IMG/VR virus record: IMGVR_UViG_3300006467_001879
DNA: 20,000 nucleotides
Source of the DNA: an uncultured virus (IMG/VR IMGVR_UViG_3300006467_001879)
Taxonomy: Duplodnaviria > Heunggongvirae > Uroviricota > Caudoviricetes
Direction: 5' to 3' (one strand)
Shown here: one piece after another, positions 128 through 20,000 of the stretch
Layout: the number at the start of each line of letters is the position of its first letter
How positions within the stretch are numbered: the first letter of the stretch is position 1
Made by a program: the position numbers and the translations under genes
The notes under the pieces: model-generated
What the model was told of the DNA's origin: nothing
The model's database searches: none
The model's input: only the letters and a program-made list of their open reading frames with translations

Positions 128-745
128 CTATTCAATTTTCAACTTTTTGATAATATTCTCCAAAGCCTCTTCTTGTTTGTCGGTGAGCTTTCCTTTTTTT
201 TCACAGCTTTTTTTGAGGCTATGGATGAATGATGTGTCAAACCAATCGTTTTTTTCAGCCCATTTTAAAACAAGATTAATTCGGGTAAAATTTGAGTTGG
301 ACTCATAGCTTGTAAAGTCAAGAAGCTTTTGGTTGATTCGCTCTTTAATATTGAGCTGTTTTCCTGATAGGTTTCGTTTTCTTATGATGTCTTGATAAAA
401 GTCGTATTCAAAATCGCTAAGTAATTTCTTATCCTTCATAAATTCAAGTACTTCGGCACTCATGCTTTTTGAAATATCTTCTTTTAACCGTTTGATTGAT
501 GTAAAGATCTTGTTGCCGTCATCAATGTTCAAGAATTTATTTACGCAACAATTTCCGACTTCGGTTATAGTGCCGTTGATTCTATTCTTAATAACACAGA
601 TATTCTTTATTGGGTAATGACCACATAAACACGATTCAAGCTCTTCACTGTAATAAGCGTAGTCAAAATCCCATTCAAACTTGGCATCCGTCCAGTTGTT
701 GGATTCACTTCTATCAATTATTTCAGTTATGAGTTTATATTCCAT
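128..745 (-). CDS. Hypothetical protein with putative Zn-binding Cys/His cluster
   Basis: 205-aa ORF with CLCGH...C...VGNCCV, and two C-terminal helical segments sharing L[ST]xKQ. Starts 3 nt after the upstream stop. Confidence 0.75.
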   Translation of the reverse strand: MEYKLITEIIDRSESNNWTDAKFEWDFDYAYYSEELESCLCGHYPIKNICVIKNRINGTITEVGNCCVNKFLNIDDGNKIFTSIKRLKEDISKSMSAEVLEFMKDKKLLSDFEYDFYQDIIRKRNLSGKQLNIKERINQKLLDFTSYESNSNFTRINLVLKWAEKNDWFDTSFIHSLKKSCEKKGKLTDKQEEALENIIKKLKIE

Positions 746-748
746 AAG

Positions 749-4605: not shown

Positions 4606-4617
4606 ATTCTAATATTC

Positions 4618-5673
4618 TTAATTCAACGCCTTATACCAATAGAAAAATGCTGCTTTGTCTCTCGATTTTTTGAGCTTGTTCAGGAAGTTTAGCTCACCGG
4701 AAATTTCCAGATTACTGATGTCCTGACCGTTAAATTTCTCTATCGCTGAATGGTCTTTGTTCTTTAATTGTTTGGCGAGGTAAGCTGCTTTACCTGCTGC
4801 AAGTATGGCATCTTCAATTTTGAAGTTTTCAGCGATCAAAAAGCCTTCAAACCTGCGTATTCCGGTAGTGAGTTCGGTAAACCTAGTTTTGTCTGGCTCC
4901 ACGGTATTTTTGGTTCGTTTGGCTATGAGTAAAGAAGTGGTGAAAATATCATCCAGTATCTCTGTTAAGCCAATTTCCAGTTCACGATAGTTGATTTCCT
5001 TAGCACCAATTTTCTCAAAACTCAACGCAATTTCTTCTACGTTTTCTACTTCGTCAAAGAGGCATCCAATATCAAAGAGTTGCTTAATAATTTCCTGTTC
5101 TTTGTCCTTGCCGTAAAGGATTCCAACGGTGTTTGGTGCAAATGCCGTGAGTTTGTCTCCTAAAATAGATTCAATAGAGGGAACAGCTACTTCCAATACT
5201 TCTTCGGATTCAATCCACTCCGATTGGATAGGAGCTGATAATAATCTTGGGTAATCGGTTTGCTCAAATAGAATATCCAATAACACAAAATGAGCACTTT
5301 GATTCAGGCTCGATTCATAATCAAATTCGTAATGAGCTTTGGGTACACCTTCTTTGTAGCTTCTTCTATCTTGTAGATCCCATTTATTGAAATGTGAGTT
5401 AGCCACCACTTTGTCCAGGATTGCTTCAACTTCCTCTCTGCTTTGAGTGGTAATAATATCAATATCTACCGAAAACCGTCTCGATTTGGAAAGCAACAAT
5501 ACCAAACTCGTACCGCCTTTAAAAGTAAACTCCAGACCATGAGCTTTGAGCTGCTGCAACAAGGAAAGAGCGTGTATCATTTTCTCCAATATTGGAGGAT
5601 TGATACGCTTCAAATGCTTTTGCTGCTTAAAGCCGTTGATCCATTCTTTGGTAAAACAATGTGCTTTTATCAT
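4618..5673 (-). CDS. abiEii: AbiEii/AbiGii-family nucleotidyltransferase toxin (type IV TA)
   Basis: FKGGTSL, RFSVDIDI, GDKLTAF and KQLFDI motifs; ATGA overlap with the upstream antitoxin-like gene. Confidence 0.9.
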   Translation of the reverse strand: MIKAHCFTKEWINGFKQQKHLKRINPPILEKMIHALSLLQQLKAHGLEFTFKGGTSLVLLLSKSRRFSVDIDIITTQSREEVEAILDKVVANSHFNKWDLQDRRSYKEGVPKAHYEFDYESSLNQSAHFVLLDILFEQTDYPRLLSAPIQSEWIESEEVLEVAVPSIESILGDKLTAFAPNTVGILYGKDKEQEIIKQLFDIGCLFDEVENVEEIALSFEKIGAKEINYRELEIGLTEILDDIFTTSLLIAKRTKNTVEPDKTRFTELTTGIRRFEGFLIAENFKIEDAILAAGKAAYLAKQLKNKDHSAIEKFNGQDISNLEISGELNFLNKLKKSRDKAAFFYWYKALN

Positions 5674-6440
5674 TCTAAAATATCTTTTAATAAATCGCCA
5701 AAATACTCACTCATGTAAGCCTTCAATTGCGGTTCTTTTTTTCGTCTCCTTGCATAGTTCAGCATTCGGCTAAAATTAACATGATACCTTTTTAAGGCAT
5801 TTTCAAACAGTGTTTCCATTTCACTTCCTTGAACCGTGTAAAAGGTTATTGGATCGCAGAATATATCCACCAACATTTTTTCTAAAGTCGGAACCTGAAT
5901 TTTATCCTTTGCCTTTGGTTTTATGGAAACCTTTTGTTTAGGCGAACGGCTAATAAGCGGTTTTATAACGATGGAAATTTCACTTTCCACATACCTTTCC
6001 ATGATGTCCTCATTAGGATCGAGATACACTCGGTATTGTTTGGATTCGGAATAGGCGTTGAATACTTCTTCCACAAAATCCCTTTCTACCTCTAATAAAT
6101 AGAAGAAAGTCCCCATTTGATGTCTTGTAAAGTCATTAAACCATTCAGTACTCCATAAGCAGTAATCTAGGTTGTCAAACTCCTTAGCGACAATTTTTGA
6201 GAGCTTTACAAGTTTATCAGAAATGGCAGGAACATACTTCTTACTGTTTGAAATACTGTAAACCCCTCGTTTTACGGATTTAATGATATTCTTATTTAGT
6301 AAGTCATGGATACGCCATGATAAAGCCGTTTCGGTCATTTCCGGATCGAATTGCTTTAAAAAGGCGAATAGCTCATCCCGATCGAATTGAGTTACGTCCT
6401 TAAAAGTCTCTATTAGCTGTTTCTCTATGAACTTTGTCAT
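5670..6440 (-). CDS. abiEi: AbiEi-like antitoxin / transcriptional regulator (DUF6577-like)
   Basis: N-terminal winged-helix pattern (LSWRIHDLLNKNIIKSVKRGVY); C-terminal PTLEKMLVDIF and YARRR; directly upstream of and coupled to the AbiEii gene. Confidence 0.8.
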   Translation of the reverse strand: MTKFIEKQLIETFKDVTQFDRDELFAFLKQFDPEMTETALSWRIHDLLNKNIIKSVKRGVYSISNSKKYVPAISDKLVKLSKIVAKEFDNLDYCLWSTEWFNDFTRHQMGTFFYLLEVERDFVEEVFNAYSESKQYRVYLDPNEDIMERYVESEISIVIKPLISRSPKQKVSIKPKAKDKIQVPTLEKMLVDIFCDPITFYTVQGSEMETLFENALKRYHVNFSRMLNYARRRKKEPQLKAYMSEYFGDLLKDILE

Positions 6441-7049: not shown

Positions 7050-7937
7050 ATGAATCCATATAACGATGAGTTGATGGCATACGAAGATGATGCCGAAGAC
7101 AGATACGATGACTACGATGGGTATGAAGAAGATGACTTCGATACCGGTTTTGAAGGTCATGAAGACAGTTATTACGATGAGGATGAATACTACGATGAAG
7201 AAGTAGAATACATTCCTGCCGATGATGACGACATGTACGATAGTTACAAAACAAATTCTATCGGACGTATTGACCCTAACGACCGAACCCTGACCGTAGT
7301 AGTGAAAAATACTTCCGGAGCTGATGCAGAAGCCATTCTGTTTGGAGCAAACGAAGAAGCAGCACAACCTGCCGGTGTAACGGTAAGCGTTGAAGAGAGT
7401 TCACACAAAGAAGTAAGGGAGGAATCAAAAGCCAACCCATTCAAGATTGTGGGAATGAAAATGTCGGTTTCCAATCCATTGCAATTTGACAATGTATTGA
7501 AGATCAATAAAAGGACAGCGACAGGAAGCAATTCGGTAAGAGTTTACCAACCAAGAAATGCAACTTCTCCACAAAACTTCACTCAAGGTTTGATTGATGA
7601 CAACAACTTTGAAGTGGACGTTACCGGACAAGACAGCATTAGATTATTGCTTAAAGATGGTGTAACGGTGGTATTCACCTTCACAATCAAGGCAAGAGCC
7701 AACATGGGTAACTTATTGGACGGTAAAAATGTTGCCGAGCTTTCAACTGCTCCTAGAACAACTGGTCTTCCACAATTAGACTTAATCAGAAGTAAAAAGC
7801 CGACAGCCTTTGGTTTGAAGCCTAAGAAACTGGTAAAGAAGATTGTCAGAAAGAGACCTAGTCCTGTTAAACGCAGACGTGGTATTTCAATGAGAAGACG
7901 ACCTGGAGGAAGAGGATTCTTACGCAGAAGAAGATAA
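7050..7937 (+). CDS. Candidate major capsid/structural protein: acidic N-terminus, beta-sandwich core, basic C-terminus
   Basis: About 65 aa of D/E/Y-rich N-terminus; about 140 aa of alternating beta-strand pattern; K/R-rich tail ending RRRPGGRGFLRRRR; no TM; followed by a terminator-like hairpin. The ORF is solid, the function is inferred. Confidence 0.55.
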   Translation: MNPYNDELMAYEDDAEDRYDDYDGYEEDDFDTGFEGHEDSYYDEDEYYDEEVEYIPADDDDMYDSYKTNSIGRIDPNDRTLTVVVKNTSGADAEAILFGANEEAAQPAGVTVSVEESSHKEVREESKANPFKIVGMKMSVSNPLQFDNVLKINKRTATGSNSVRVYQPRNATSPQNFTQGLIDDNNFEVDVTGQDSIRLLLKDGVTVVFTFTIKARANMGNLLDGKNVAELSTAPRTTGLPQLDLIRSKKPTAFGLKPKKLVKKIVRKRPSPVKRRRGISMRRRPGGRGFLRRRR

Positions 7938-8043: not shown

Positions 8044-8676
8044 ATGCAAAAAAGTTTAACAAGGTCGAAATACGCACAAAATCGCATTGCCTACATCGTG
8101 TATGGCAATCCGGATGGGGCACGCAAGTTTTTGTTTGACCAAGGGTATCATGCTCCAAAGAACATTCACGATTTAGTGAAGGCAACTAAGGAACTGGTGA
8201 AAACGGAAGGCAAAAGCATTGTTCCGCACTTGTTAACTATTCATCCGGAAAAAGATTTGATTTTGAAACTAAACCAACCAAAGGAAGATAGCTTTTGCGG
8301 TTCATGTGGCAGCAGCTCTTTTAATCCTGAATCCAACTTTTGCGGGGCTTGTGGCAACAGCAATTTTGGTGGTGATTCCAACTTGGATGTAGGCGACTAC
8401 ATTGATCAAATGGTGGATATGACCACTTCCCAATTGGAAAAACATTATCAGGAAGTATTGGCAGCCTCCAATAAAAAGCCGGAAGACTTATCCCTTATGG
8501 AAGAAGTTCAACTGGTTTGGAATGAATTAAGACAGCGAAAACTAACTGCTGAATCCCCAAAAAAGGAAGAACCCAAAGACAAAGACCGCTTTTCTGTTTC
8601 AAAAGACGGATTAGTGATTTTGGGGTTAACACTGGTAGCCGGTGTACTCATCGGATCCTCCATAAAAAGCAACTAA
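8044..8676 (+). CDS. Hypothetical protein with two FCGxCG repeats and a C-terminal TM
   Basis: DSFCGSCG and SNFCGACG; C-terminal GLVILGLTLVAGVLIG. Confidence 0.8.
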   Translation: MQKSLTRSKYAQNRIAYIVYGNPDGARKFLFDQGYHAPKNIHDLVKATKELVKTEGKSIVPHLLTIHPEKDLILKLNQPKEDSFCGSCGSSSFNPESNFCGACGNSNFGGDSNLDVGDYIDQMVDMTTSQLEKHYQEVLAASNKKPEDLSLMEEVQLVWNELRQRKLTAESPKKEEPKDKDRFSVSKDGLVILGLTLVAGVLIGSSIKSN

Positions 8677-8677
8677 G

Positions 8678-9247
8678 ATGATTAGAATAGTCAAAGAGGA
8701 AAATACACAGGTACTCAATCAGCAATCCAAGGCTGCTCTATCCTTAATTGGTGTAGCCGTAGCTAAAAATCCAAAGCCCTATAAAATGCTTTTGGATAGA
8801 TATGGCATTCAGGTTCCAACAAGCGATAAAATATCTCTAGCTAATGGATTGGTTGAAGGTTTAGCCCTTCAAAACAAAACATTCAATCGGGAGCTAACCG
8901 AGCTACTCAGTAATATGGTAGAATCGGAAACCGCCTATAATCCTGATGAAGATGAATACCATTATGTACAAGCCATAGCCGGAGCAATTGCCGGAATATC
9001 CGGAGCTGTGGGAAGTATCGTTGGTGGCAAGAACAAGCAGAAAATGGCAAAGGAAGAAGCTCGCAGAGAAATGCTGAATAACATGCTTGCCATGAAAGCC
9101 CAGGAACAACAAGCTGCTGCCGAAGAACGCAAGTTGGCAGGCAAGAAAAGCCTATACCTCATAATCGGAGTGTTGGGCTTACTAGGGATCATCGGCTTCT
9201 TCTACTTCCGGCAAAGAAAAAATTTAATCAATACAAATCCTTCATAA
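8678..9247 (+). CDS. Hypothetical membrane protein with Gly/Ala-rich helix, coiled coil and C-terminal TM
   Basis: AIAGAIAGISGAVGSIVGG segment; LYLIIGVLGLLGIIGFFYF followed by RQRK. Confidence 0.8.
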   Translation: MIRIVKEENTQVLNQQSKAALSLIGVAVAKNPKPYKMLLDRYGIQVPTSDKISLANGLVEGLALQNKTFNRELTELLSNMVESETAYNPDEDEYHYVQAIAGAIAGISGAVGSIVGGKNKQKMAKEEARREMLNNMLAMKAQEQQAAAEERKLAGKKSLYLIIGVLGLLGIIGFFYFRQRKNLINTNPS

Positions 9248-9257
9248 ACGATAGATC

Positions 9258-9677
9258 ATGGAAATAAGCAATTATAACTACGGAATAAGTGGTCAGCCTA
9301 CAAACGAGTGGGACAACTTTTTATGCTTTGGTAGAAAATGTAAGCAAGGAAAAGCCGAAAGGCATAAGCTTAGAATGGAAAAGCGAAAGCTAAAAAATGA
9401 CCAAAGGCGTGCTGAGACAGAATCTATGAGAGCAGAAACAAGCTTAACGAAGCAATTGGCTTCGCCAACATCTACTCCAACTCCGCAGATGGCTCCACAA
9501 ATGATGATGCAACAAGCACCACAACCAACATCAACGGCACAAGCTCCAGCTCCACAAGTGCAAAAAGCAGGTATGGGAAGTCCGGTAATGATTGTCATCG
9601 GTTTGCTTGTAGTTGGAGGTTTAGTGTATCAATCCATGAAGAAAAAAGAGGCTGCTGCTCCAGTACAAACTGCTTAA
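9258..9677 (+). CDS. Hypothetical protein: basic tract, P/Q/T linker, C-terminal TM
   Basis: EWDNF, then K/R-rich helix, low-complexity linker and VMIVIGLLVVGGLVY. Confidence 0.8.
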   Translation: MEISNYNYGISGQPTNEWDNFLCFGRKCKQGKAERHKLRMEKRKLKNDQRRAETESMRAETSLTKQLASPTSTPTPQMAPQMMMQQAPQPTSTAQAPAPQVQKAGMGSPVMIVIGLLVVGGLVYQSMKKKEAAAPVQTA

Positions 9678-9687
9678 AATTTAAGTT

Positions 9688-10236
9688 ATGATAGCTGCAA
9701 ACCCGATATATGAATTACAGTTTTATGGAGGTCTTTTAGAAGAGGAAGACAACTTTGTTGATGGCTTAGGAAATGAATTTGAGTACGATGAATTCATTGG
9801 TAAGTGGATCAAAAAAAGAAAGGAAAAGCGAAGCCAAAATCCTAAAGTCATTGCTCGAAGAGAAAAAAGGGATGAAAAACGAATTGCCAAAGGCAGAAAG
9901 CCTAGGTTTAGTCGTCCTGCTCCGGTGCGAACTTCCAAACCGGTAGTAAAGCAAGTTGCTCCCGATTTACCTCCAAAGAAGGAACCAATATTGAGTGAAC
10001 CACAAGTGAAAAAAGCTATGGTGGAGAGCTCTTCTAAATCAGAAGAACCAAGCACTAAACCGATGGAACAAACCGAAACAATTGCTTCGGAAAGCACTAC
10101 GAATTTAACAGCCGAAAACACAGAAAACCAACCACAACAAGCCTCTATGCTGCCTTTTGGCATGAGCAAGAAGACCTTGGTTTTTGTGGGTGTTGGTGTG
10201 GCTGCATTGGTAGTAATTGGAATAATCAGAAAATAA
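9688..10236 (+). CDS. Hypothetical protein: acidic leader, basic tract, linker, C-terminal TM
   Basis: EEEDNF...EYDEF, then KWIKKRKEKR...; terminal LVFVGVGVAALVVIGII. Confidence 0.8.
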   Translation: MIAANPIYELQFYGGLLEEEDNFVDGLGNEFEYDEFIGKWIKKRKEKRSQNPKVIARREKRDEKRIAKGRKPRFSRPAPVRTSKPVVKQVAPDLPPKKEPILSEPQVKKAMVESSSKSEEPSTKPMEQTETIASESTTNLTAENTENQPQQASMLPFGMSKKTLVFVGVGVAALVVIGIIRK

Positions 10237-10245
10237 TGAATAAGC

Positions 10246-10473
10246 ATGGACATACTCGCTCAAATAACGGAAGAAGAAGCAACAACCAACGGAAACTTAC
10301 CCCAAGGTTTTCTCTTCGCCTCCATCAAGAACGTGGGAACAAGCACAGCTCTTGTGAACAATGTGCCTTTGCCTCCGGGAGAAGCCAAAAGCTACCCCTT
10401 TGTAGGAAAAGGTTATCAGGCGGTAAACTATGAGCCACAAGGTTCTACACTTAGAATATTAAGAATCCTATAA
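10246..10473 (+). CDS. Small all-beta protein (possible minor virion/vertex protein)
   Basis: 75 aa, beta-rich, ASIKNVGTSTALVNNVPLPPGEAKSY; fits the operon spacing. Confidence 0.65.
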   Translation: MDILAQITEEEATTNGNLPQGFLFASIKNVGTSTALVNNVPLPPGEAKSYPFVGKGYQAVNYEPQGSTLRILRIL

Positions 10474-10562
10474 ACAGGCAATGCCTGAGATAATTATTGA
10501 GAGACTTTGGCAATTCTAATAAAGTGAGAAGCAAATAGCAACAACATCAAAATAGCGAAACA

Positions 10563-10982
10563 ATGATTGCAGGAGAAACAGAATATATCATACATGGTGG
10601 AGAAGATAATTACGATTACTTCTTGAAAAACCTGTTTAAGAAAGATCCCAACAAACAGTCAAAACCCAAACGTACTGCCGAAGAAAAAGCAGCTCGAAAA
10701 GAGCAACGCCAACAATGGTGGGGAAAGCAAAAAGAAGGTTTTCAAAAAGCCGGAGGTGTGGAAGGTATTACCAGTACCCTAGGAAATATTGTAGGCTTTT
10801 TTAAAGACGATACACCAACGGATTATGATGTTTCCATGGGTGGACAGCCTGCCCCTGAACCTGAGAAAAAAGGCATTTCAAAAGAAGTAATGATTATCGG
10901 AGGAATAGCCGTGCTAGTGATTGCTGCATACGGCTTTTCAGTCATGCAAAAGAATAAGAAAGTACAAATCCAGTCCGCTTAA
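10563..10982 (+). CDS. Hypothetical protein: acidic leader, basic tract, amphipathic helix, C-terminal TM
   Basis: EDNYDYF, then KNLFKK...KPKR; VMIIGGIAVLVIAAYGF; TAATG coupling to the next gene. Confidence 0.8.
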   Translation: MIAGETEYIIHGGEDNYDYFLKNLFKKDPNKQSKPKRTAEEKAARKEQRQQWWGKQKEGFQKAGGVEGITSTLGNIVGFFKDDTPTDYDVSMGGQPAPEPEKKGISKEVMIIGGIAVLVIAAYGFSVMQKNKKVQIQSA

Positions 10983-11788
10983 TGTTAGTACCAGTACCAA
11001 CACATAACAATCGTTTTGTTTTGAAGGTAGGAATTAAAGCCCTTCGACCGGTCATTATTGCCCTTAAAGGTTATGATGCCCACAGAGCTAATTCCTATTA
11101 TTTCAGAAGAAAGGTTCCTTTCAAGCCCTCGGCAATGAGAGACGGCATGAATTACAAGGAAATCTCTATTCCAATGCCTTTGTCTCCTGAAACTTTGTTG
11201 GTTGAAATTTACAATAGCGAGTCCGGTGAAGACAATGGCTATGTAATTGAAAAGTTTGAATTGGAAAAACTGGATGCTTCTGAGGTTTGGGCTCAACCTG
11301 CCATGCATCGCTTCATTGACTTTGCTCAAAACTTTGCGAAGTATAGTGGTACATACAAGCCCGGATTTTTCGATTCACCCGACCATGAATTTTTGATTCA
11401 GTTACTACCAGTCATTAAAGACCAGTTTGGCAATACCATGGTAACGCCTGCTAGAACCAACCGTCAGACCGGTAGAATACAGGTCTCAAATCAGGCATTC
11501 AAACACTTTACCATTCCGGTAAGGATGTTTGTGTTATTGCATGAACGCCAACATTTTCAAATACCGACACGAGAAGAACGTCCGGCAGACCTTGCTGCAT
11601 TAAAGCTCTATTTGGATCTACAATACCCAAAAATTGAGGCGGTGTACGCTGCTACAAAAGTATTTGCCATGCACCCTGAAACCGTGGGAAGTCAGCATGT
11701 AACAAGAGCTCAGGACATTATCAATTTCATTGACAGGTATCGCAATACCCAAGAAATTATGTTAAACCACAAAGCCAAAGCCGTATGA
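10982..11788 (+). CDS. Putative zinc metalloprotease (HExxH) with N-terminal beta domain
   Basis: FVLLHERQHF followed by EERPADLAAL, an ExxAD third-ligand motif as in M48/M78-like zincins. Confidence 0.65.
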   Translation: MLVPVPTHNNRFVLKVGIKALRPVIIALKGYDAHRANSYYFRRKVPFKPSAMRDGMNYKEISIPMPLSPETLLVEIYNSESGEDNGYVIEKFELEKLDASEVWAQPAMHRFIDFAQNFAKYSGTYKPGFFDSPDHEFLIQLLPVIKDQFGNTMVTPARTNRQTGRIQVSNQAFKHFTIPVRMFVLLHERQHFQIPTREERPADLAALKLYLDLQYPKIEAVYAATKVFAMHPETVGSQHVTRAQDIINFIDRYRNTQEIMLNHKAKAV

Positions 11789-13521
11789 ACAGCAAACAGA
11801 AAATAGGGTTATTGGGAGCTTTGGCGGTGGTTGGCACAGGTTATTTCCTTTTCAAAAATGACAAGGATGAAAAGACAATAAGCACCACAGACAAAGAAAC
11901 TAAGTTGCACGGTGATGATACCGAAAGCAACTTTATTGGTATTTCCAATGCTCGTATTCATCAGGCATTAATGGCTCAAAACCCCAACTATGCTAAAGCG
12001 TATAAAAAGGACTTAAAAACATGGGGAACAGTATCGGGCGTGATAGATGTTTCCAATGACTTTGATGAAGCCAAACGCAAGAAAAAGAAATTAAAAGCCT
12101 TTGCCCAAAAAGCATTGGAAGTTCAGAAGAACTACAAGGAAAAGGCTGCCTATTTACCCGAAATATCCAAAACACAAATTTCCCTTACCAATAATGGGAC
12201 TTCAGTTAGAACCGTCAATTTATGGGGAGCTAATATGGCTACTTCTATCAGTAAGCCATTACCCGAAGATGTTCAGGATCACAAGGTAAATCAAGAAGTA
12301 CAAACAGGCATACATCCTCAAAATGTAGGCTTCAATTCGTTCAATGGATTACTGTATGTAGCCAATCAGTTGAGCGATAGTATTACTATCATGGATAAGT
12401 CGGGAGCAATTGTAAAAACCGTTGCTTTGGGTAGTGTTTATCCCGGATTTGTTTCTCCGGTGGATGTTGCCTTTAACCCTTCTAATGGGGAAGCATGGGT
12501 AGTATGTTCGGTTGAGAATACAGTTAAAATATTGGATGCTACGCATAACATCATTCAAACCATTCCAGTAGGCAATCGACCAACTTCCATTGCTTACAAT
12601 CCTGAAAATAGCTGTTTTTATGTGAGCAATTTATTGGATGATACGCTTTCCAAAATTGACAGTACTAGCTACAATGTAGTAGTGACTTTAAATACCGGAG
12701 AAGATCCAAGAACAGTTTCGGTATGGACTGAACAAGGAACGGTTTGGGTAAGCAATTCAAGTTCAGATTCAGTTAGTGTTTTTGATGCAGCCGATAATCT
12801 GCTAAATGAAATAAATGCCACAGGAGATTATCCTACGGAGTTTACCACAACAACAAGCAGCCTGTTTTTGATAACCAAGAACAGCAAAGAGTTACTGGAA
12901 CTCAATCCGCAAACGCAAAATATTGAAAACACCTATCCACTAGGGTTTCAACCAAGTGGATTGGTCTATAATCCGGTTAATGGATTTTTATACGTGTTGA
13001 GCAGTCAAACTGGCTTAACCTATATTTATTCCACTACCGGAACACGTTCAGAGACTTTGTCGCTAAACAATGCACCAAACATTGGAATAGCTGCCTTACC
13101 AAATGGCGAGGTATTTACAACCAATACAAGTGGTGGCAACCTTGCTTTTATCGGTTATTCCGAAAGCAGTAGCGACATTACAATAAATGAAAGTTACCCT
13201 GAAAAACGAGCGGAATTTCAGTTCAAACCTGCATTGGTTAAACATGCCAAGTTTGTGTTTTCGGATGAAAACCGAGCAAGTGGCTTAAAACTGATTCACC
13301 AAAGTCCAACAGGGAAACAACACGTTACCCCGATTTCATTCAACAATTACAAAAGTCCACAAAACTACCTCGATGTAGCGGAAGTAACAGCCGTTCGTGG
13401 TGATGTGATTGATGGAAAATCAACATGGGAGTTTAAGATAGCTCCTGGACAGACCATTACCATTTTGGTCTATTACAAACAGCTTCAATTCAAATATTTA
13501 ATACCAACAATTAAAATTTAA
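11785..13521 (+). CDS. Membrane-anchored YVTN/YncE-type beta-propeller protein, with the propeller inserted in a domain paralogous to ORF 7050
   Basis: N-terminal TM; repeats LYVANQLSDSITIMD, FYVSNLLDDTLSKID, VWVSNSSSDSVSVFD and IPVGNRPTSIAYNP; flanking segments align with ORF 7050. Confidence 0.85.
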   Translation: MNSKQKIGLLGALAVVGTGYFLFKNDKDEKTISTTDKETKLHGDDTESNFIGISNARIHQALMAQNPNYAKAYKKDLKTWGTVSGVIDVSNDFDEAKRKKKKLKAFAQKALEVQKNYKEKAAYLPEISKTQISLTNNGTSVRTVNLWGANMATSISKPLPEDVQDHKVNQEVQTGIHPQNVGFNSFNGLLYVANQLSDSITIMDKSGAIVKTVALGSVYPGFVSPVDVAFNPSNGEAWVVCSVENTVKILDATHNIIQTIPVGNRPTSIAYNPENSCFYVSNLLDDTLSKIDSTSYNVVVTLNTGEDPRTVSVWTEQGTVWVSNSSSDSVSVFDAADNLLNEINATGDYPTEFTTTTSSLFLITKNSKELLELNPQTQNIENTYPLGFQPSGLVYNPVNGFLYVLSSQTGLTYIYSTTGTRSETLSLNNAPNIGIAALPNGEVFTTNTSGGNLAFIGYSESSSDITINESYPEKRAEFQFKPALVKHAKFVFSDENRASGLKLIHQSPTGKQHVTPISFNNYKSPQNYLDVAEVTAVRGDVIDGKSTWEFKIAPGQTITILVYYKQLQFKYLIPTIKI

Positions 13522-13525
13522 AACA

Positions 13526-14020
13526 ATGGGAAAATTAAACTATCTGGTCATTCACTGTACCGCAAGTCCTGAAGGCAAAGAGCTTACTAAGGACGATATT
13601 ATTCGCATGCACACTAACCCAAAACATTTGGGAGGAAGAGGTTGGAATCGTCCGGGATATTCCGACATCGTGTACCTCGATGGAGAGCTTGTAAACATCA
13701 TACCATTCAACCAAGACGATCAAGTGGATCCATGGGAAATATCCAATGGAGTACGTGGCATCAATGGTAATTCAAGGCATGTGGTGTATGTAGGTGGTGT
13801 TGATGAAAGTGGAGAAAAGCCAAAAGACACAAGAACTAAAAAGCAAAAAGGCACTTTAGAAACCTATGTAAAGTTCATGGTATTACGTCATCCGCATATT
13901 CAGGTTTTAGGACATAATCAAGCTCCCGGAGCAAGCAAGGCTTGTCCAAGTTTTGATGTTCCTAAGTGGTTGGAAAGCATCGGTATTTCAGAGGTAAACA
14001 TTTACAAAGAAGAAGACTAA
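13526..14020 (+). CDS. N-acetylmuramoyl-L-alanine amidase (Amidase_2, T7 lysozyme-like)
   Basis: YLVIHCTA, GW..PGY, YVGG, LGH and KACPSFDV motifs. Confidence 0.92.
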   Translation: MGKLNYLVIHCTASPEGKELTKDDIIRMHTNPKHLGGRGWNRPGYSDIVYLDGELVNIIPFNQDDQVDPWEISNGVRGINGNSRHVVYVGGVDESGEKPKDTRTKKQKGTLETYVKFMVLRHPHIQVLGHNQAPGASKACPSFDVPKWLESIGISEVNIYKEED

Positions 14021-15133: not shown

Positions 15134-15514
15134 ATGAAGAAAGAGACAATTAAACTGGATAATAAAATGCTATGGATCGGAGCTGGACTGGCAGTTACAG
15201 CAGCCGGTTTTGGCGTATGGTATTTTCTGAAAAAACGAAAAGAGAAACAGCAATTTGCTGCAAGCATTAAAGGAACAACCACTTCGAGCAGTTCTTCAGG
15301 AGTTCGCTCATTTAGTTGCATGTATTCCGATAGCAGCTTCCCATTGAAATTCGGAACCTGTGGAACCAATGTGAAGAAGCTCCAAAACTACCTAAACTCA
15401 AAAGGATCAGGAATAGATACAGATGGCAAGTTTGGTCCGAAAACAGAAGCAGCAGTTCAGAAGGTATTTGGCACTAAAACGGTGTCTCAGGAGAAATTCA
15501 AAACGATAAGCTAA
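15134..15514 (+). CDS. Membrane-anchored peptidoglycan-binding (PG_binding_1) protein
   Basis: N-terminal TM; PLKFGTCGTNVKKLQNYLN...DGKFGPKTEAAV. Confidence 0.85.
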   Translation: MKKETIKLDNKMLWIGAGLAVTAAGFGVWYFLKKRKEKQQFAASIKGTTTSSSSSGVRSFSCMYSDSSFPLKFGTCGTNVKKLQNYLNSKGSGIDTDGKFGPKTEAAVQKVFGTKTVSQEKFKTIS

Positions 15515-16077: not shown

Positions 16078-16497
16078 ATGGATACAGGAATTATTACAGA
16101 AATAGCGACACAAATTATGGGATATGTGAAAAGCCTTGATTGGGCTTTCATTCTCACTTTTATCATTATCGGATATGGTATCAACTCAGAAAAGTTCACC
16201 AATCAGATCAAGCAGAAAACCAATATTTCTTCCAAGCGAAGATACCGAACGGCATTGGTGGGGTTAGTCTATGCCGTGATTCTGTATTTCATTCGAGGAT
16301 ATGAAATTAAGCATATTGAAGTACTGTTTCAATCCTTCGTATTTGCCTTTGTTTTTCACAAACTCATTTTGGATGGTTTAGTCCGCTATATAACTGGTAA
16401 AAGAACGGATTACAAAACGCTAAAGGAAAATGAAACTTCAGAGAAGTTCCATCAGACCATTGAAAAAACAAAGCAAACTGATGAAAATGCGACTTAG
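16078..16497 (+). CDS. Multi-pass membrane protein, holin candidate (start revised from 15925)
   Basis: ATG at 16078, just after the upstream stop at 16066; three hydrophobic segments and a charged C-terminal tail. Confidence 0.55.
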   Translation: MDTGIITEIATQIMGYVKSLDWAFILTFIIIGYGINSEKFTNQIKQKTNISSKRRYRTALVGLVYAVILYFIRGYEIKHIEVLFQSFVFAFVFHKLILDGLVRYITGKRTDYKTLKENETSEKFHQTIEKTKQTDENAT

Positions 16498-16846
16498 CCA
16501 TGCAGTCTTGTTGCTTTGGCTGATGACCATAATAGGTTTTGTATGGTATTGGAGCTCAAAGGATAGGTCGGCTAATCTAAACCCCAATTACGAGCAAACC
16601 ATCAAGAAACTGGAACAGCAAAACGACAGCCTCTTAGCAATCAATCAAGGTTTGCAAGAGCAAATTGTTGAGCAACTGGAAAAACAAGAAGGCATAAAGG
16701 AAGAACTAAAAAAACGAAACAAGGATTTAAAACAACTCAAATACAGAAAAAGTGAAAAGATTAGGGCTATTGGTGATTATGATAATGATGAGCTGTATCG
16801 GTTTTTCGCAGAATTTGAAACCGACAGTTTACACCATTCAGAATGA
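16481..16846 (+). CDS. N-terminal TM plus coiled coil, i-spanin-like (start probably 16481 or 16487)
   Basis: AVLLLWLMTIIGFVWYW followed by a long heptad-rich region; 3' end overlaps the next gene by 95 nt. Confidence 0.55.
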   Translation: MKMRLSHAVLLLWLMTIIGFVWYWSSKDRSANLNPNYEQTIKKLEQQNDSLLAINQGLQEQIVEQLEKQEGIKEELKKRNKDLKQLKYRKSEKIRAIGDYDNDELYRFFAEFETDSLHHSE

Positions 16847-17183
16847 TACACTTTTCTGCTTTACAGTAAGTCAGGCAAAAGTAATTGCTATTGAACTGGA
16901 AGGCAAAAAGTATCTGGATAGCATTACAGTTGAGCAAAATACACAACTGGCTTTGCAAGATTCTTTGATTCAGCAGCAGGATTCAACTATTAAGTTGCTC
17001 CATAATCAAGCGATCAACTATCAAAGCATCATTACCAATAGTAAAGAGGTAAACAATGAGGTAAACCTGCAATTGGGCTATCTAAAAACAGAAGTGAAAC
17101 GACATAAACGAGATAAGATATTCCTAGGAACCGGGCTTGGAGTAAGCATTGGAATCATAGGAATCTTAGCCATACTTAATTAA
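16752..17183 (+). CDS. Exported coiled-coil protein with C-terminal TM, spanin-like partner
   Basis: GTG start; signal peptide MKRLGLLVIMIMMSCIGFSQ; Q-rich coiled coil; terminal IFLGTGLGVSIGIIGILAIL. Confidence 0.55.
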   Translation: MKRLGLLVIMIMMSCIGFSQNLKPTVYTIQNDTLFCFTVSQAKVIAIELEGKKYLDSITVEQNTQLALQDSLIQQQDSTIKLLHNQAINYQSIITNSKEVNNEVNLQLGYLKTEVKRHKRDKIFLGTGLGVSIGIIGILAILN

Positions 17184-17189
17184 AGAATT

Positions 17190-18530
17190 ATGAGTGCAAT
17201 TGGTGGATATAGCAGTGATGTAAACCTAAACGATTTAAACTATGTGGGTGATTTTCCGGTGGAAAATAGCCTCGGTGGTTTTGGTGTTACAACTGGTGGA
17301 ACAGATGACTATGTGTTAGAATTAGATCCTGCATTGAAAAATGCTTACCGACAAGGATTGAGCATTCAAGTGAAATTCAATCAAGGAAATACAGGTGTTT
17401 CCACAATCAATATTAATGGTAAAGGAGCGGTTCCAATAATGAAAGCTGTGAACGGTTTATTGGTGGACTTAGCAGCCGATGATTTGGGAACCATCAATCA
17501 TTATTTATTACTATTTGATGGGACTTGTTTTCAAGTAGTAGCCGGTCTAAAATCGAGTATTGAAACGGCATCGGAAACCGTTGAAGGAAAAGCGAGAGTT
17601 GCCACGATTGAAGAAGTCAATGCAGGAACAAGTAACTCAACTTTTGTTACCCCTCAAAAGCTTGCAAGCTATGTAGCTGATAAGGTAACAGGACTTTGGG
17701 AAAACAAAGGAACTATTGACTGCTCAACGAATCCTAATTATCCGGCAGCCTTAGCCGGAGATGCTTATACGGTAAGTGCCGGAGGTAAAATTGGTGGAGC
17801 TGCCGGAGAAGATGTTCAGGAAATGGATGTAATTGTTTGTTTAGTTGACAATGCCGGAGGTGATCAGGCAAGCGTTGGAGCTTCATGGAATGTGATTCAA
17901 AGCAATGTTTCGCAAGCAACCGAAACTATTGCAGGAATAATCAAAGTGGCTTCACAGGCTTTGGTTAATGGTGGAATAGATGATTTGAGTGCCATTACCC
18001 CTTTGAAACTGAAAACACTTTTGGATTCAAGACTGGCGACCGAAACACTTATCGGCTTAATTGAAATTGCTACTCAGGCAGAAACCGATTTAGGAGCTGA
18101 TAACCAAAGAGCTATTACGCCATTGAGATTGAAAACTCGATTGGATAATTACCTTAATAGGGAATCACTCCTTACCATCACGGCTGAACAGATAGGAACG
18201 ACCATGTATCATACACCGGGAAGAAATCGCTATTCAGTAGTAAATGGTAATATGATACTGATTAAAGACATTCGATTAAAACGTACCGGTGGAACTGGTT
18301 CTGTTGCTGCATGGGTAATGAATTTCCCAAAGCCTAATAACAGTCCAACTGGAGCTTTATCAGGGACTTTAACTAGTAATCAAGGTGAAACTTTCTTTTA
18401 CAACATTGATGGTAATGGAAGGGTATCAATATTTGGAAATTTTATAGATCCGAACGATGAATTGCTTTTCAATATTCATCCTTATATCGCCAAATACCCA
18501 ATTGAATACGATGCTACTTCACCTGCTTAA
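17190..18530 (+). CDS. Phage fibre/spike-like protein
   Basis: NTGVSTININGKGAVPI domain, three A[ST]ET..G....A[ST]......G......[VI]TP.[KR]L repeats resembling T4 gp34/gp12-type fibre repeats, and a beta-rich C-terminal tip. Confidence 0.8.
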   Translation: MSAIGGYSSDVNLNDLNYVGDFPVENSLGGFGVTTGGTDDYVLELDPALKNAYRQGLSIQVKFNQGNTGVSTININGKGAVPIMKAVNGLLVDLAADDLGTINHYLLLFDGTCFQVVAGLKSSIETASETVEGKARVATIEEVNAGTSNSTFVTPQKLASYVADKVTGLWENKGTIDCSTNPNYPAALAGDAYTVSAGGKIGGAAGEDVQEMDVIVCLVDNAGGDQASVGASWNVIQSNVSQATETIAGIIKVASQALVNGGIDDLSAITPLKLKTLLDSRLATETLIGLIEIATQAETDLGADNQRAITPLRLKTRLDNYLNRESLLTITAEQIGTTMYHTPGRNRYSVVNGNMILIKDIRLKRTGGTGSVAAWVMNFPKPNNSPTGALSGTLTSNQGETFFYNIDGNGRVSIFGNFIDPNDELLFNIHPYIAKYPIEYDATSPA

Positions 18531-19029: not shown

Positions 19030-19566
19030 ATGGCAGTTCAGGTAGATAAAAAGGTAGTCTTTATGGGGGTTGGTATCCTTGTGGGTGTCATTGGTATTGC
19101 TATTGCAAGTCGTTGGCTTTACAAGAAATTGGATATTCAAACCAAGTTAAAGCTCCGTCAACTTCGACCTGAAGTAAGAAAGAAGGTCGAGAAGTTTCTT
19201 ATCAAAGCTCAAAAGGCAGGCATCCCACTTAAAGTCACCAGTGCTTACCGTGATTGTGAAGAGCAAAACAAACTCTATGCACAAGGACGAACAGCTCCCG
19301 GAGGAATTGTCACCAATGCCAAATGCGGACAGTCGGATCACAATGTAGGAGTAGCAATAGATATTGTTCCTATTGTGGATGGACGAGCGAATTACAAAGT
19401 GCCTGAATCGGTATGGAATACCCTTGGAGTTATTGGTGAAAGTGTTGGTCTTTCCTGGGGAGGTCGATGGACTTCTTTTAAAGACCGTCCACATTTTTAC
19501 GACCGAGGTGGTAAATCCATTGCACAGCTTTGGACTGAACAACAAAACTTAGCAAACCTAGCATAA
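19030..19566 (+). CDS. M15-family (CwlK/Ply500-like) peptidoglycan endopeptidase with N-terminal TM
   Basis: SAYR..EEQ..LYAQGRT, SDHNVGVAIDI and WGGRW..FKDRPHF motifs. Confidence 0.92.
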   Translation: MAVQVDKKVVFMGVGILVGVIGIAIASRWLYKKLDIQTKLKLRQLRPEVRKKVEKFLIKAQKAGIPLKVTSAYRDCEEQNKLYAQGRTAPGGIVTNAKCGQSDHNVGVAIDIVPIVDGRANYKVPESVWNTLGVIGESVGLSWGGRWTSFKDRPHFYDRGGKSIAQLWTEQQNLANLA

Positions 19567-20000
19567 TGAGCGAAGCAACCAGAGTACATAAAAACGCCTA
19601 TCGAAATGGCAATGCCTCTTCCATGTTGGATTATTTGGAAGAGTTAATACTGATTCAAAGTGGTGAAAACGGAAGGCTAACCATTCCTGAAACAGAGCAA
19701 GGTTATGAAGACCTGACTGTTTCTGATGCGGAAGTGGCTCAATTAAGTGTTCCTGAAAATGCTATTTCAGCAACTATTTCCATTGAAGCCGATACAAGTG
19801 TAACGGATAAAATAAGAGTGATTCGTTTCAAAGAAAACGGTAGCAATCCAAGTGCAAATTCCGGTATTGCTTTAGGCGATAACGACCTTTATGAAATTAC
19901 CGGTCGATGGAATTTAGAAAGCTTTCGAGTTATCGGAGTTGAGGCAGGGAAAAGCCATGTTTTAAGAGTGCAATATTATCAATCTCCAAATAACACATGA
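19566..20000 (+). CDS. Beta-rich hypothetical protein (possible single jelly-roll vertex/spike protein)
   Basis: GYEDLTVS...VP..A.SATISIE...IRFKENG.NPS...GI.L...LRVQYY pattern; TAATG coupling; stop at 19998-20000. Confidence 0.6.
   Translation: MSEATRVHKNAYRNGNASSMLDYLEELILIQSGENGRLTIPETEQGYEDLTVSDAEVAQLSVPENAISATISIEADTSVTDKIRVIRFKENGSNPSANSGIALGDNDLYEITGRWNLESFRVIGVEAGKSHVLRVQYYQSPNNT

Follow-up and report, generated by a model that had tools for sequence, protein, structure and literature searches.

A propeller in a jelly-roll loop

We show, by comparing protein families, that P0001 carries a split jelly roll paralogous to the core of a second protein, P0002, and that a complete beta-propeller occupies the loop after jelly-roll strand 2. 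P0001 is a protein of 578 residues encoded on the plus strand at positions 11785..13521 of the window, the whole 20,000-nucleotide stretch of DNA that was analyzed, and its start codon shares an ATGA with the stop codon of the ORF upstream. P0002 is the un-inserted paralogue, a protein of 295 residues encoded on the same strand by ORF 7050 (7050..7937). The pair is a clean natural case in which a small jelly roll holds an entire propeller in one of its loops, and both the un-inserted paralogue and un-inserted forms resembling orthologues survive for comparison.

From its N terminus, P0001 consists of a weak hydrophobic anchor, a helical linker, two beta strands, the propeller, and a final part of seven strands and a helix; its homologues have identities of 29 to 94%. 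Before the propeller, residues 128 to 150 (12166..12234, plus strand) form jelly-roll strands 1 and 2 (residues 128 to 136 and 142 to 146) and a WGAN turn. The pLDDT of this stretch is 81 to 90, and N136 and W147 are invariant across 28 aligned sequences of the P0001 family. The propeller spans residues 165 to 459 (12277..13161, plus strand). The remainder of the jelly roll follows at residues 462 to 572 (13168..13500, plus strand), with strands at residues 465 to 467, 483 to 492, 501 to 506, 512 to 517, 530 to 534, 546 to 552, and 557 to 566 and a helix at residues 471 to 480. The order of strands and helix is identical in the AF2 models of P0001 and P0002, and pLDDT and homology together suggest that strands 128 to 146 pack against residues 465 to 566.

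The preliminary description named the inserted domain a YVTN propeller, and that assignment holds. TIGR02276 matched at 49.2 bits (cut-off, 27.85), and Pfam families Lactonase (33.4; cut-off, 21.7), YNCE (31.9; cut-off, 27.1), and NHL (26; cut-off, 20) also matched above their cut-offs. In the model, residues 166 to 458 hold 28 strands (pLDDT of 84 to 97), arranged as seven four-stranded blades of the YVTN/YncE type. VIA aligned the propeller with E. coli YncE (3vgz; Z of 36.9, rmsd of 1.8, 282/321 residues aligned), with the Lp49 antigen (Z of 36.2), and with an archaeal S-layer YVTN protein (Z of 36.2, 23% identity), and Foldseek matched it to 1l0q (E of 3.6e-19). The propellers 1l0q, 3vgz, and 3bws (Leptospira Lp49) share the fold and the repeat family of the P0001 propeller, with Z of 36.2 to 36.9 and rmsd of 1.7 to 2.4. 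They are surface or periplasmic, non-enzymatic propellers. These known propellers are free-standing or fused head to tail, whereas the P0001 propeller is nested in a loop of another domain. The VIA alignments span P0001 residues 159/167 to 459, and thus the propeller is complete without strands 128 to 146. The matches listed in a wide VIA search with the whole P0001 model were all propellers and thus do not bear on the jelly-roll part; among the best 50 matches listed by Foldseek and VIA, none also covered the jelly-roll parts.

Three ungapped pairings of P0001 with P0002 had been proposed, and both the pairings and the ORFs were confirmed at the places given for them. Pairing 1 sets P0001 residues 132 to 150 (nucleotides 12178-12234) against P0002 residues 83 to 101, pairing 2 sets residues 470 to 494 (13192-13266) against residues 118 to 142, and pairing 3 sets residues 501 to 528 (13285-13368) against residues 150 to 177. 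Shuffled P0001 sequences reached the observed score in 541/2000 cases for pairing 1, 230/2000 for pairing 2, and 1/2000 for pairing 3; when single sequences are compared, pairing 3 alone exceeds chance. A profile test was made with hhalign, in which 44 sliding 40-residue segments of the P0001 family alignment were compared to the P0002 family alignment, and only two regions rose above background. Segments covering P0001 residues 120 to 169 matched P0002 residues 81 to 104 (E of 7e-5), and segments covering residues 470 to 540 matched P0002 residues 120 to 178 (E down to 5.5e-7). Propeller segments, including residues 430 to 469, and the reversed-profile control gave E of 0.013 or worse against the P0002 family. 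When whole alignments were used, hhalign paired P0001 residues 464 to 558 with P0002 residues 111 to 207 (probability of 86%, E of 4.9e-6), and about 125 columns of the two families aligned nearly gap-free in MAFFT. Finally, an HMM of the post-propeller part matched 145 of 5347 ORFs, which were 79 of the 80 P0002 homologues and 66 P0001 homologues, and no other ORF among the 5347 was matched.

Relatives that lack the propeller point to the same site. An HMM of the pre-propeller strands matched 5 of 8 un-inserted relatives (i-E of 1e-8 to 8e-5), always at a place that immediately precedes the jelly-roll remainder, and HMMs of blades 1, 6, and 7 matched none of the 8 (best i-E of 0.56). Moreover, P0227 (132 bits) and P0257 (115 bits) are members of the P0001 family in which the first strands are followed by a linker of 16 to 32 residues and then by the jelly-roll remainder. 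That the propeller lies inside a paralogue of ORF 7050, as was claimed at the outset, is borne out, as the flanking parts match P0002 collinearly and relatives without the propeller exist. The related claim that the propeller takes the place of a short loop also stands: approximately 313 residues of P0001 (151 to 463) are found instead of a loop of roughly 10 residues in P0002 (residues 99 to 109; 7344..7376, plus strand), which lies between model strands 93 to 98 and 110 to 117.

The same comparisons bear on whether there was an insertion at all. P0001 might instead be a propeller followed by a P0002-related C-terminal domain, with the likeness ahead of the propeller due to chance or to a "velcro" strand. 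In BLASTP (E of 0.009), the partner of the first P0002 strands was the last propeller blade, and when inserted and un-inserted forms were aligned globally by MAFFT, the first strands of the un-inserted proteins likewise fell on the last blades. Pairing 1 by itself was not significant, and the pre-propeller HMM was weak on close P0002 homologues (2/80 at E <=0.01). Both the BLASTP and the MAFFT placements fail the segment and blade-HMM controls, however: last-blade segments were at background while the pre-propeller segment matched at the collinear place, and un-inserted relatives were matched by the pre-propeller HMM and not by the blade HMMs. Moreover, P0227 and P0257 retain strands and remainder without a propeller, and the 28 propeller strands are all present without residues 128 to 146. 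Without those two strands, the C-terminal part of P0001 would have seven strands versus nine in P0002. We consider it very improbable that there was no insertion.

P0002 and the jelly-roll family

P0002 is the first gene of a conserved module and the most conserved protein in it, being present in 80/80 loci with a median identity of 79%. The protein has an acidic N-terminal tail (residues 1 to 66), a jelly-roll core (about residues 75 to 219), and an Arg/Lys-rich C-terminal tail (residues 246 to 295). Its AF2 model is mediocre (pLDDT of 58), and the core of that model aligned to many jelly rolls at a modest Z of 5.6 to 7.3, which supports a jelly-roll fold, although VIA rates even the best of these matches as common. 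Among the matches listed were Ena1B (Z of 7.3), the capsids or pentons 2y26, 6q5u_O, 4ind, and 2buk (Z of 7.0 to 7.2), AlgX and nucleoplasmins, which tied with the capsids and pentons, and also TNF-like proteins and spore-appendage subunits. The best Foldseek match was the CMV capsid (E of 1e-3). ORF 7050 had been described as capsid-like, and P0002 is at most a candidate capsid protein: the fold matches are generic (Z of at most 7.3, Foldseek E of at least 1e-3) and no capsid family matched by sequence. CRESS-type capsids came top for P0002 in a Foldseek search of BFVD and were discounted (TM of 0.14 to 0.26, rmsd mostly >12), because disordered P0002 tails drive those poor superpositions. 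ESM Atlas scores for P0002 reached at most 0.83 and are leads only.

Searches of Pfam, PHROG, and NCBIfam gave no match for P0002 or for the jelly-roll parts of P0001, and PDB sequence searches with P0002, the P0001 jelly-roll parts, and P0295 returned only chance-level rows. Judged by these sequence searches, the P0001/P0002 family, which comprises 362 representatives when clustered at 50% identity, is without a relative in Pfam, PHROG, NCBIfam, or the PDB. No paper on the family was found in the part of the literature that our search reached.

Some relatives carry more than one jelly roll. Six of 142 representatives have two or three jelly rolls of the P0001/P0002 kind per chain, and in P0307 and P0305 the first of these carries a propeller. 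Every jelly roll in the tandem proteins scores nearer to the P0001 family than to that of P0002, and thus the tandem proteins are not a clean fusion of P0001 and P0002. The tandem chains indicate that jelly rolls of this kind do work side by side. Metagenome scans for the P0305 and P0314 contigs found nothing.

The element that carries P0001

P0001 and P0002 sit in a conserved, one-strand module of approximately 13 kb that contains membrane proteins, lysins, spanin-like genes, and a fibre. The module encodes an amidase (phrog_822, 4e-40), an M15 endolysin (phrog_2649, 6.5e-33), a tail-fibre-like protein (phrog_910, 1.5e-29), and an Rz-like gene that overlaps a lipoprotein gene, and proteins that span the membrane once are numerous in it. 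The module is the right arm, for morphogenesis and lysis, of an integrative element of about 50 kb that resides in Bacteroidota chromosomes, often in several copies. Marine Bacteroidota carry up to three elements per chromosome, and the chromosome of Kordia algicida OT-1 has three copies, two of which are 97% identical. A Formosa strain (locus L005) encodes a P0002 that is 98% identical and a P0001 homologue of 578 residues. Conserved genes account for approximately 27 kb of the element, to which is added a large slot for defence cargo, where the islands are large and exchangeable. The flanks were read from a relative (L001/G001) of 92 to 97% DNA identity. The left arm encodes a large methylase, a helicase of the SNF2 or Strawberry-notch type, and a serine recombinase, and in a relative a large serine recombinase adjoins tRNA genes at the far end. 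The only candidate ATPase of the element is a Zot-type P-loop ATPase that matches Pfam Zot and AAA_22. We note that a 311-residue protein adjoining the ATPase scores 0.91 to 0.96 in the ESM Atlas to unnamed clusters labelled mostly viral, a lead rather than evidence.

Within the module, P0001 is an accessory rather than an obligatory part. A P0001 homologue is found 3.7 to 6.2 kb after P0002 in 65 of the 68 informative loci, defined as those with at least 7 kb downstream of P0002, and it is accessory because it is missing from the other 3. Immediately upstream and translationally coupled through the ATGA overlap is an ORF of 268 residues with an HExxH motif (10982..11788, plus strand); the gene is present in 72/80 loci, and the motif is kept in 71/72 homologues. 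Immediately downstream lies the amidase gene, and P0001 and the amidase are lost together in two loci (L019 and L028).

Whether the element is a virus bears on how both proteins are read. The element might not be a virus, and P0002 might act in an integrative element, possibly competent for transfer, as a nucleoplasmin-like chaperone or as a protein that coats DNA. The P0002 core would then be a jelly-roll oligomer with acidic and basic tails, and P0001 would be a cell-surface adhesin or an exclusion protein built on the same oligomerizing scaffold. Cores of the nucleoplasmin family do align to the P0002 model over nearly their full length (7vrr, Z of 6.5, 92/94 residues; 8as5, Z of 6.2, 87/87 residues; 1nlq, Z of 6.1, 100/105 residues), and an acidic tract and a basic tail are present in P0002. 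The likeness to nucleoplasmin and nucleophosmin thus consists of a small jelly roll that covers almost the whole target and sits beside strongly acidic tracts, but nucleoplasmins are eukaryotic histone chaperones, they have no sequence similarity to P0002, and they match it no better than capsids and pentons do. As for gene content, a methylase, a helicase, and a serine recombinase as found in the left arm are common in integrative elements, and no virus hallmark family was found: Pfam, PHROG, and NCBIfam searches of both arms returned no capsid, portal, terminase, or FtsK/A32-type ATPase family. Moreover, scans of IMG/VR with the P0002 family, the P0001 family, and P0305 found no relatives, and a tblastn search of INPHARED (50,697 phage records) found nothing for P0002. 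For P0001, the INPHARED search gave one weak match, which was restricted to the propeller and was rejected. Against a non-viral element are the phage-type lysis genes and the fibre in the right arm, and the arms that were scanned yielded no relaxase, coupling protein, or Tra family. The lysins, spanin-like genes, fibre, Zot-type ATPase, serine recombinase, and multiple copies speak for a virus genome, and the missing hallmark families and virus-collection relatives speak against one. We think it rather unlikely that the element is something other than a virus.

What P0001 might do

We tentatively favor P0001 as an accessory structural protein of an integrative, probably viral, Bacteroidota element of about 50 kb, a reading in which we place slightly less than even confidence. 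P0001 may serve as a subunit for surface display on a virus-like particle that has yet to be described. P0002 would form ring- or lattice-like jelly-roll oligomers, with its basic C-terminal tail facing DNA and its conserved acidic N-terminal helix serving as a peptide for docking or masking. In such an assembly, a P0002-type position would be occupied by the jelly-roll half of P0001, from which the propeller would project outward as a binding module that evolves fast; the loop can accommodate a propeller because the two ends of the propeller are adjacent. The propeller is the fastest-evolving part: its median identity to the proteins of this DNA is 30%, whereas that of the P0001 jelly roll is 44% and that of the P0002 core reaches 79%.

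The variable N-terminal linker of P0001 might tether the protein to a membrane during assembly, with an anchor in about half of the homologues. An N-terminal transmembrane tether had been proposed, and part of that proposal stands, as residues 7 to 23 (11803..11853, plus strand) form a possible anchor of 17 hydrophobic residues with lysines on either side. The anchor is not a feature of the family, however, as a hydrophobic N terminus occurs in 31/67 homologues; the pLDDT of residues 7 to 23 is <30. Farther along, the family alignment reveals a conserved linker motif of the KDLKxWGTxxGVIDVSND type (residues 73 to 92; 12001..12060, plus strand), which is present in 19/67 homologues, is duplicated in some, and is absent from all other ORFs of the loci examined.

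Alternatively, the propeller might be an enzyme or a periplasmic binding protein for lysis or entry, acting for example on envelope polymers, and the jelly roll would anchor or oligomerize the propeller and belong to no shell. The lactonase-type Pfam match, the VIA match to virginiamycin B lyase (2z2n, Z of 35.2), and the Foldseek match to 2qc5 are consistent with such a role, as are the position of P0001 directly before the amidase with which it is lost and its coupling to the HExxH protein. The best matches of the propeller, however, are the non-enzymatic surface and periplasmic proteins YncE, Lp49, and the archaeal S-layer YVTN protein, and the residues invariant in the family are positions of the repeat framework, among which no catalytic set was recognized. 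Moreover, the rapid evolution of the propeller fits binding better than catalysis. We regard an enzymatic or periplasmic propeller as unlikely.

The display reading of P0001 can be compared with known viral systems. In PRD1 (Tectiviridae), the spike protein P5 can sit in the vertex because one of its domains is a jelly roll akin to that of the base protein, the penton P31, and its display part comes after the base domain. PRD1-type chains are among the P0002 matches (6q5u_O, Z of 7.1; 1yq5, Z of 5.6, Foldseek E of 6.8e-3), but the display part of P0001 sits inside the base domain, and there is no similarity in sequence. Two paralogous vertical single jelly rolls, one plain and one with a tower domain, build the capsids of membrane-containing, tailless viruses of the former Sphaerolipoviridae (VP16/VP17 of P23-77 and VP4/VP7 of SH1 and HHIV-2). 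P0001 and P0002 are likewise two jelly-roll paralogues, with the propeller as the added domain, in a module rich in membrane proteins. In contrast to the sphaerolipovirus type, a distance of 3.8 kb separates the P0001 and P0002 genes, a propeller of 295 residues makes up the extra domain, and P0001 is possibly membrane anchored. Moreover, a system of the sphaerolipovirus type requires both proteins and encodes a packaging ATPase of the FtsK/A32 type, whereas P0001 is dispensable in 3/68 loci and the candidate ATPase matches Zot/AAA_22. The P23-77, SH1, and HHIV-2 proteins were not among the best 50 P0002 matches listed, which does not imply their exclusion. More generally, the P domains of tombusviruses and caliciviruses, the hexon towers of adenoviruses, and the insertion loops of microviruses all place extra material outermost on a jelly-roll shell. 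In the portion of the full-text literature that was available, we found no case of a seven-bladed propeller, complete and independent, that forms a loop insert.

Taken further, the element might represent an unrecognized lineage of temperate, tailless, membrane-containing Bacteroidota viruses, with a shell of single jelly-roll paralogues in which P0002 is the main protein and P0001 the turret, a proposal that we regard as doubtful. Metagenomic relatives such as P0295, P0307, and P0305 have two or three of the jelly rolls fused in one chain, and in this proposal the family would hold a living series of structural proteins with one, two, and three jelly rolls that arose independently, outside the known kingdom of double jelly-roll viruses. 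If P0001 and P0002 do build a particle, they would add a virus group missed by standard virus finders, and the transition from single to tandem jelly rolls would be open to direct study within one family. If they do not, P0001 and P0002 still define a new oligomerizing scaffold of a widespread mobile element.

Other domains may have entered the same loop. The preliminary description had suggested a survey for alternative inserts, and P0311 and P0308 are possible cases with non-propeller inserts, although no Pfam family matched either protein. Our impression is that the insert of P0311 may be lectin-like.

A propeller nested in a jelly roll

The preliminary description placed a YVTN propeller inside a domain of P0001 (578 residues; ORF 11785-13521, plus strand) paralogous to P0002 (295 residues; ORF 7050-7937, plus strand), and this split domain is borne out by collinear profile windows, reciprocal HMM searches and a joint MAFFT alignment. 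A search with P0001 gave 58 matches, including 27 homologues with the full architecture, which were aligned with it as A1. Comparison of A1 with A2, an alignment of the listed P0002 homologues, paired P0001 464-558 with P0002 111-207 (probability 86%, E 4.9e-6). When A1 was cut into 44 windows of 40 residues, each compared with A2 and, as a control, with its reverse, only two regions rose above the rest: windows 120-169 matched P0002 81-104 (E 7e-5 to 1e-4), and windows 470-540 matched P0002 120-178 (E down to 5.5e-7). All propeller windows, including the region 430-469 favored by BLASTP, and all reversed controls gave E 0.013 or worse. Both matches are collinear, and P0001 151-463 stands opposite a loop at P0002 99-109. 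Moreover, when 5347 ORFs from 80 related loci were searched with a post-propeller HMM, the 145 matches all belonged to one or the other family: 66 were P0001 homologues and 79 were P0002 homologues (about 1e-5), all but one of the 80; reciprocally, the P0002 HMM matched 11 P0001 homologues. Finally, 38 post-propeller domains and 9 P0002 cores aligned nearly gap-free across ~125 columns at 16-21% inter-family identity, with NP, TG, SPQN and a later glycine common to both. We conclude, on strong grounds, that a propeller is very probably nested in a P0002-type jelly roll.

The three ungapped pairings reported earlier were found at the positions claimed. In 2000 shuffles of P0001, the scores were equalled 541, 230 and 1 times, respectively, and thus the third alone is significant by single-sequence statistics. 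The BLASTP link was weak (E 0.009) and set the first strands of P0002 against P0001 439-463, immediately N-terminal of the C-terminal domain, a pairing that would imply the absence of any insertion. That reading is ruled out for practical purposes by un-inserted relatives and blade-HMM controls. P0227 and P0257, which score as members of the P0001 family (132 and 115 bits), consist of the first strands, a linker of 16-32 residues and the remainder of the jelly roll; P0227 also carries an N-terminal hydrophobic anchor. An HMM of the pre-propeller stretch matched five of eight un-inserted proteins (i-E 1e-8 to 8e-5), in each case immediately ahead of the remainder, and HMMs of blades 1, 6 and 7 matched none of the eight (best i-E 0.56). 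Close P0002 homologues were recognized weakly by the pre-propeller HMM, with 2 of the 80 reaching E 0.01 or below. Within A1, the pre-propeller stretch is among the best conserved parts, with N136 and W147 invariant and Q131, L146 and N150 almost so.

The relatives came from a search of 1.84 billion representatives with a combined profile, A3, in which 362 proteins scored E 1e-3 or lower and 145 of these 1e-10 or lower. Among the 142 representatives newly listed and mapped, 82 have first strands, propeller and remainder in that order, 12 seem 5'-truncated, and 6 have propeller and remainder without a first-strand match. The remainder stands alone in 31 (mostly P0002-like, 220-300 aa), follows the first strands directly, without a propeller, in 5, and occurs two or three times per chain in 6. 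These last, metagenomic proteins (P0295, P0307, P0305, P0291, P0303 and P0314) are tandem jelly rolls encoded on contigs of 6-25 kb; several hold the propeller in the first jelly roll, and P0295 (336 aa) is simply a double jelly roll. In P0311 (441 aa) and P0308 (538 aa), the 230-360 residues before the remainder match neither propeller HMM nor Pfam and could be other inserts occupying the same loop.

Predicted structures give the same anatomy. The AF2 model of P0001 from A1 (pLDDT 78) has pre-propeller strands at 128-136 and 142-146 (pLDDT 81-90), 28 propeller strands from 166 to 458, and then a strand at 465-467, a helix at 471-480 and strands at 483-492, 501-506, 512-517, 530-534, 546-552 and 557-566. 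The model of P0002 from A2, with a pLDDT of just 58 (core ~55-80), has strands at 79-87, 93-98 and 110-117, a helix at 120-128 and strands at 131-140, 149-155, 161-166, 181-191, 196-201 and 206-214. Since the two element lists agree, the proteins share the order of two strands, a break, a strand, a helix and six strands. We infer that 128-146 packs directly against 465-566. The termini of a propeller are generally adjacent to each other. As modeled, the propeller is complete on its own. It resembles YncE (Z 36.9, rmsd 1.8, 282 residues, model 167-458), Lp49 (Z 36.2) and an archaeal S-layer YVTN domain (Z 36.2), and the YVTN repeat model and three Pfam propeller families exceed their cut-offs on P0001. 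That the propeller serves as an enzyme or has a periplasmic role seems rather unlikely.

A conserved gene module

P0002 opens a module conserved in 80 loci of Bacteroidota chromosomes. Conservation begins exactly at P0002 in all 80, and each window gene upstream of it occurs in just 0-8. Downstream recur a 210-aa protein (78 of 80), an HExxH protein (72) and P0001 (67). A P0001 homologue is present in 65 of the 68 loci having at least 7 kb downstream; its absence from L017 is part of a larger deletion, and from L019 and L028 it is missing along with the amidase. The P0002 core is by far the most conserved part, with a median identity of 79%, compared to 44% for the P0001 jelly roll, 30% for the propeller and 33-51% for the other module proteins compared.

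From 7050 to the window end, every gene lies on the plus strand. The five proteins after P0002 are each anchored by a C-terminal membrane segment. The first, the 210-aa protein (8044-8676), matched no family and carries at least two CxxC pairs, a feature of 73 of 78 homologues. Next, 8678-10982 holds a run of small proteins that vary from locus to locus, with Lys/Glu/Pro/Gln low-complexity linkers and a single C-terminal membrane helix. Here, the 75-aa frame at 10246-10473 is the real gene, as it is found in 63 loci and the overlapping 65-aa frame (10236-10433) in just 5. The 268-aa protein (10982-11788) matched no family, keeps HExxH in 71 of 72 homologues and could be a maturation protease; its stop overlaps the P0001 start (ATGA).

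After P0001 come an Amidase_2 protein (13526-14020), several small membrane proteins, a PG_binding_1 peptidoglycan-binding protein (15134-15514) and an Rz-like gene overlapping a lipoprotein gene (16430-17183). The Rz-like product has a membrane anchor and coiled coil, and the product of the overlapping 143-aa ORF combines a signal of lipoprotein type, in which Cys follows a hydrophobic stretch, with a membrane helix at the C-terminus; we take the pair to be a spanin-like arrangement. A 446-aa protein with phage tail-fibre repeats (17190-18530; phrog_910, 1.5e-29; phrog_972, 2.3e-26) is a further candidate for a binding protein. An M15 peptidase (19030-19566) brings the cell-wall enzymes or binders in the module to three, two with an N-terminal membrane anchor. 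The last module gene (19566-20000; 160 aa at L082 19428-19910 in a relative with 92-97% DNA identity to the window) is beta-rich, matched no family and was found in 1 of 80 loci, in most of which the 10 kb flank limit conceals it. In that relative, the module ends one gene past the window and an arsenic-resistance operon follows.

Likeness and possible role of the P0002 jelly roll

By its model, P0002 has a jelly-roll fold. Model residues 75-219 matched many solved jelly rolls at Z 5.6-7.3, in a search where Z 7 to 8 was flagged as common: a Bacillus spore-appendage subunit, a nepovirus capsid domain, a PR772 chain, the STIV turret protein, STNV capsid, PRD1 P5, phage cement proteins, TNF/C1q domains and nucleoplasmin cores, the latter covered nearly in full. 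The best PDB row in Foldseek was the cucumber mosaic virus capsid (E 1e-3). As such matches are generic and include non-viral jelly rolls, the term "capsid-like" applied earlier to ORF 7050 is fair for shape but does not amount to identifying a capsid. Neither a sequence family nor a solved relative of the jelly roll was found in Pfam, PHROG, NCBIfam or PDB. A P0002 search gave 361 matches, and the best 120 (63-99% identity) are all Bacteroidota and all unnamed "hypothetical" proteins, with no Pfam domain among them.

How P0001 and P0002 act together can be read in more than one way. The likeliest, at somewhat short of even chances, is that P0001 is an accessory, outward-facing subunit of a virus-like particle, in which its P0002-type jelly roll would join P0002 assemblies. 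This tentative reading draws on the paralogy of the two proteins, their linkage, their unequal rates of change, and the lysis and fibre genes of phage type. The tandem jelly-roll relatives add to it, and PRD1 P5/P31 and the sphaerolipovirus two-protein system may be parallels to the pair. In P0002, a conserved acidic helix at the N-terminus precedes a DDFDTGFEG-type motif, and an Arg/Lys/Pro tail of 50 residues closes the chain. With an acidic N-tail and a basic C-tail, P0002 would be as suited to act as a shell protein facing the DNA as to be a chaperone of nucleoplasmin type, and the latter fit speaks for a non-viral function of the element, which we consider unlikely. Head, portal, terminase, tail-tube and conjugation families were not seen in the element ORFs scanned, no P0001 or P0002 relatives were found in IMG/VR or INPHARED, and titles and abstract openings revealed no literature on the family.

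The element and its defence slot

The module belongs to a larger element. At its far left in the relative, tRNA-Leu and tRNA-Gly lie beside a large serine recombinase of 535 aa (PDB matches: resolvase, 7e-13; TP901-1 integrase, 6.5e-10), which puts the element at ~52 kb. The relative's left arm encodes a glycosyltransferase, methylase, SNF2-type helicase and Zot-type ATPase. Kordia algicida has three copies, two of them 97% identical, and pairwise DNA comparison resolves a left arm of ~13 kb, a variable slot and a right arm that ends sharply; additional shared sequence lies further left.

The slot, between the Zot-type ATPase and P0002, carries defence cargo (window 128-6440, L010 4912-9286, L089 161-12773). 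In the window, it is a minus-strand island of DUF2779, GmrSD, AbiEii and DUF6577 genes, and the GmrSD stretch (2555-4600) has no counterpart in the relative. In the relative, RmuC, a type I restriction system and McrBC occupy the slot, and after them come the defence genes of the window itself; the Kordia slot holds PIN and HEPN/AbiV genes. Besides an AAA_5 ATPase and HTH proteins, the Kordia left arm encodes a large N6 methylase, a helicase of Strawberry-notch or SNF2 type and a Zot-type P-loop ATPase. Adjoining the last is a 311-aa protein (L083 12187-13122) whose nearest ESM Atlas clusters (0.91-0.96) are unnamed and labelled mostly viral.
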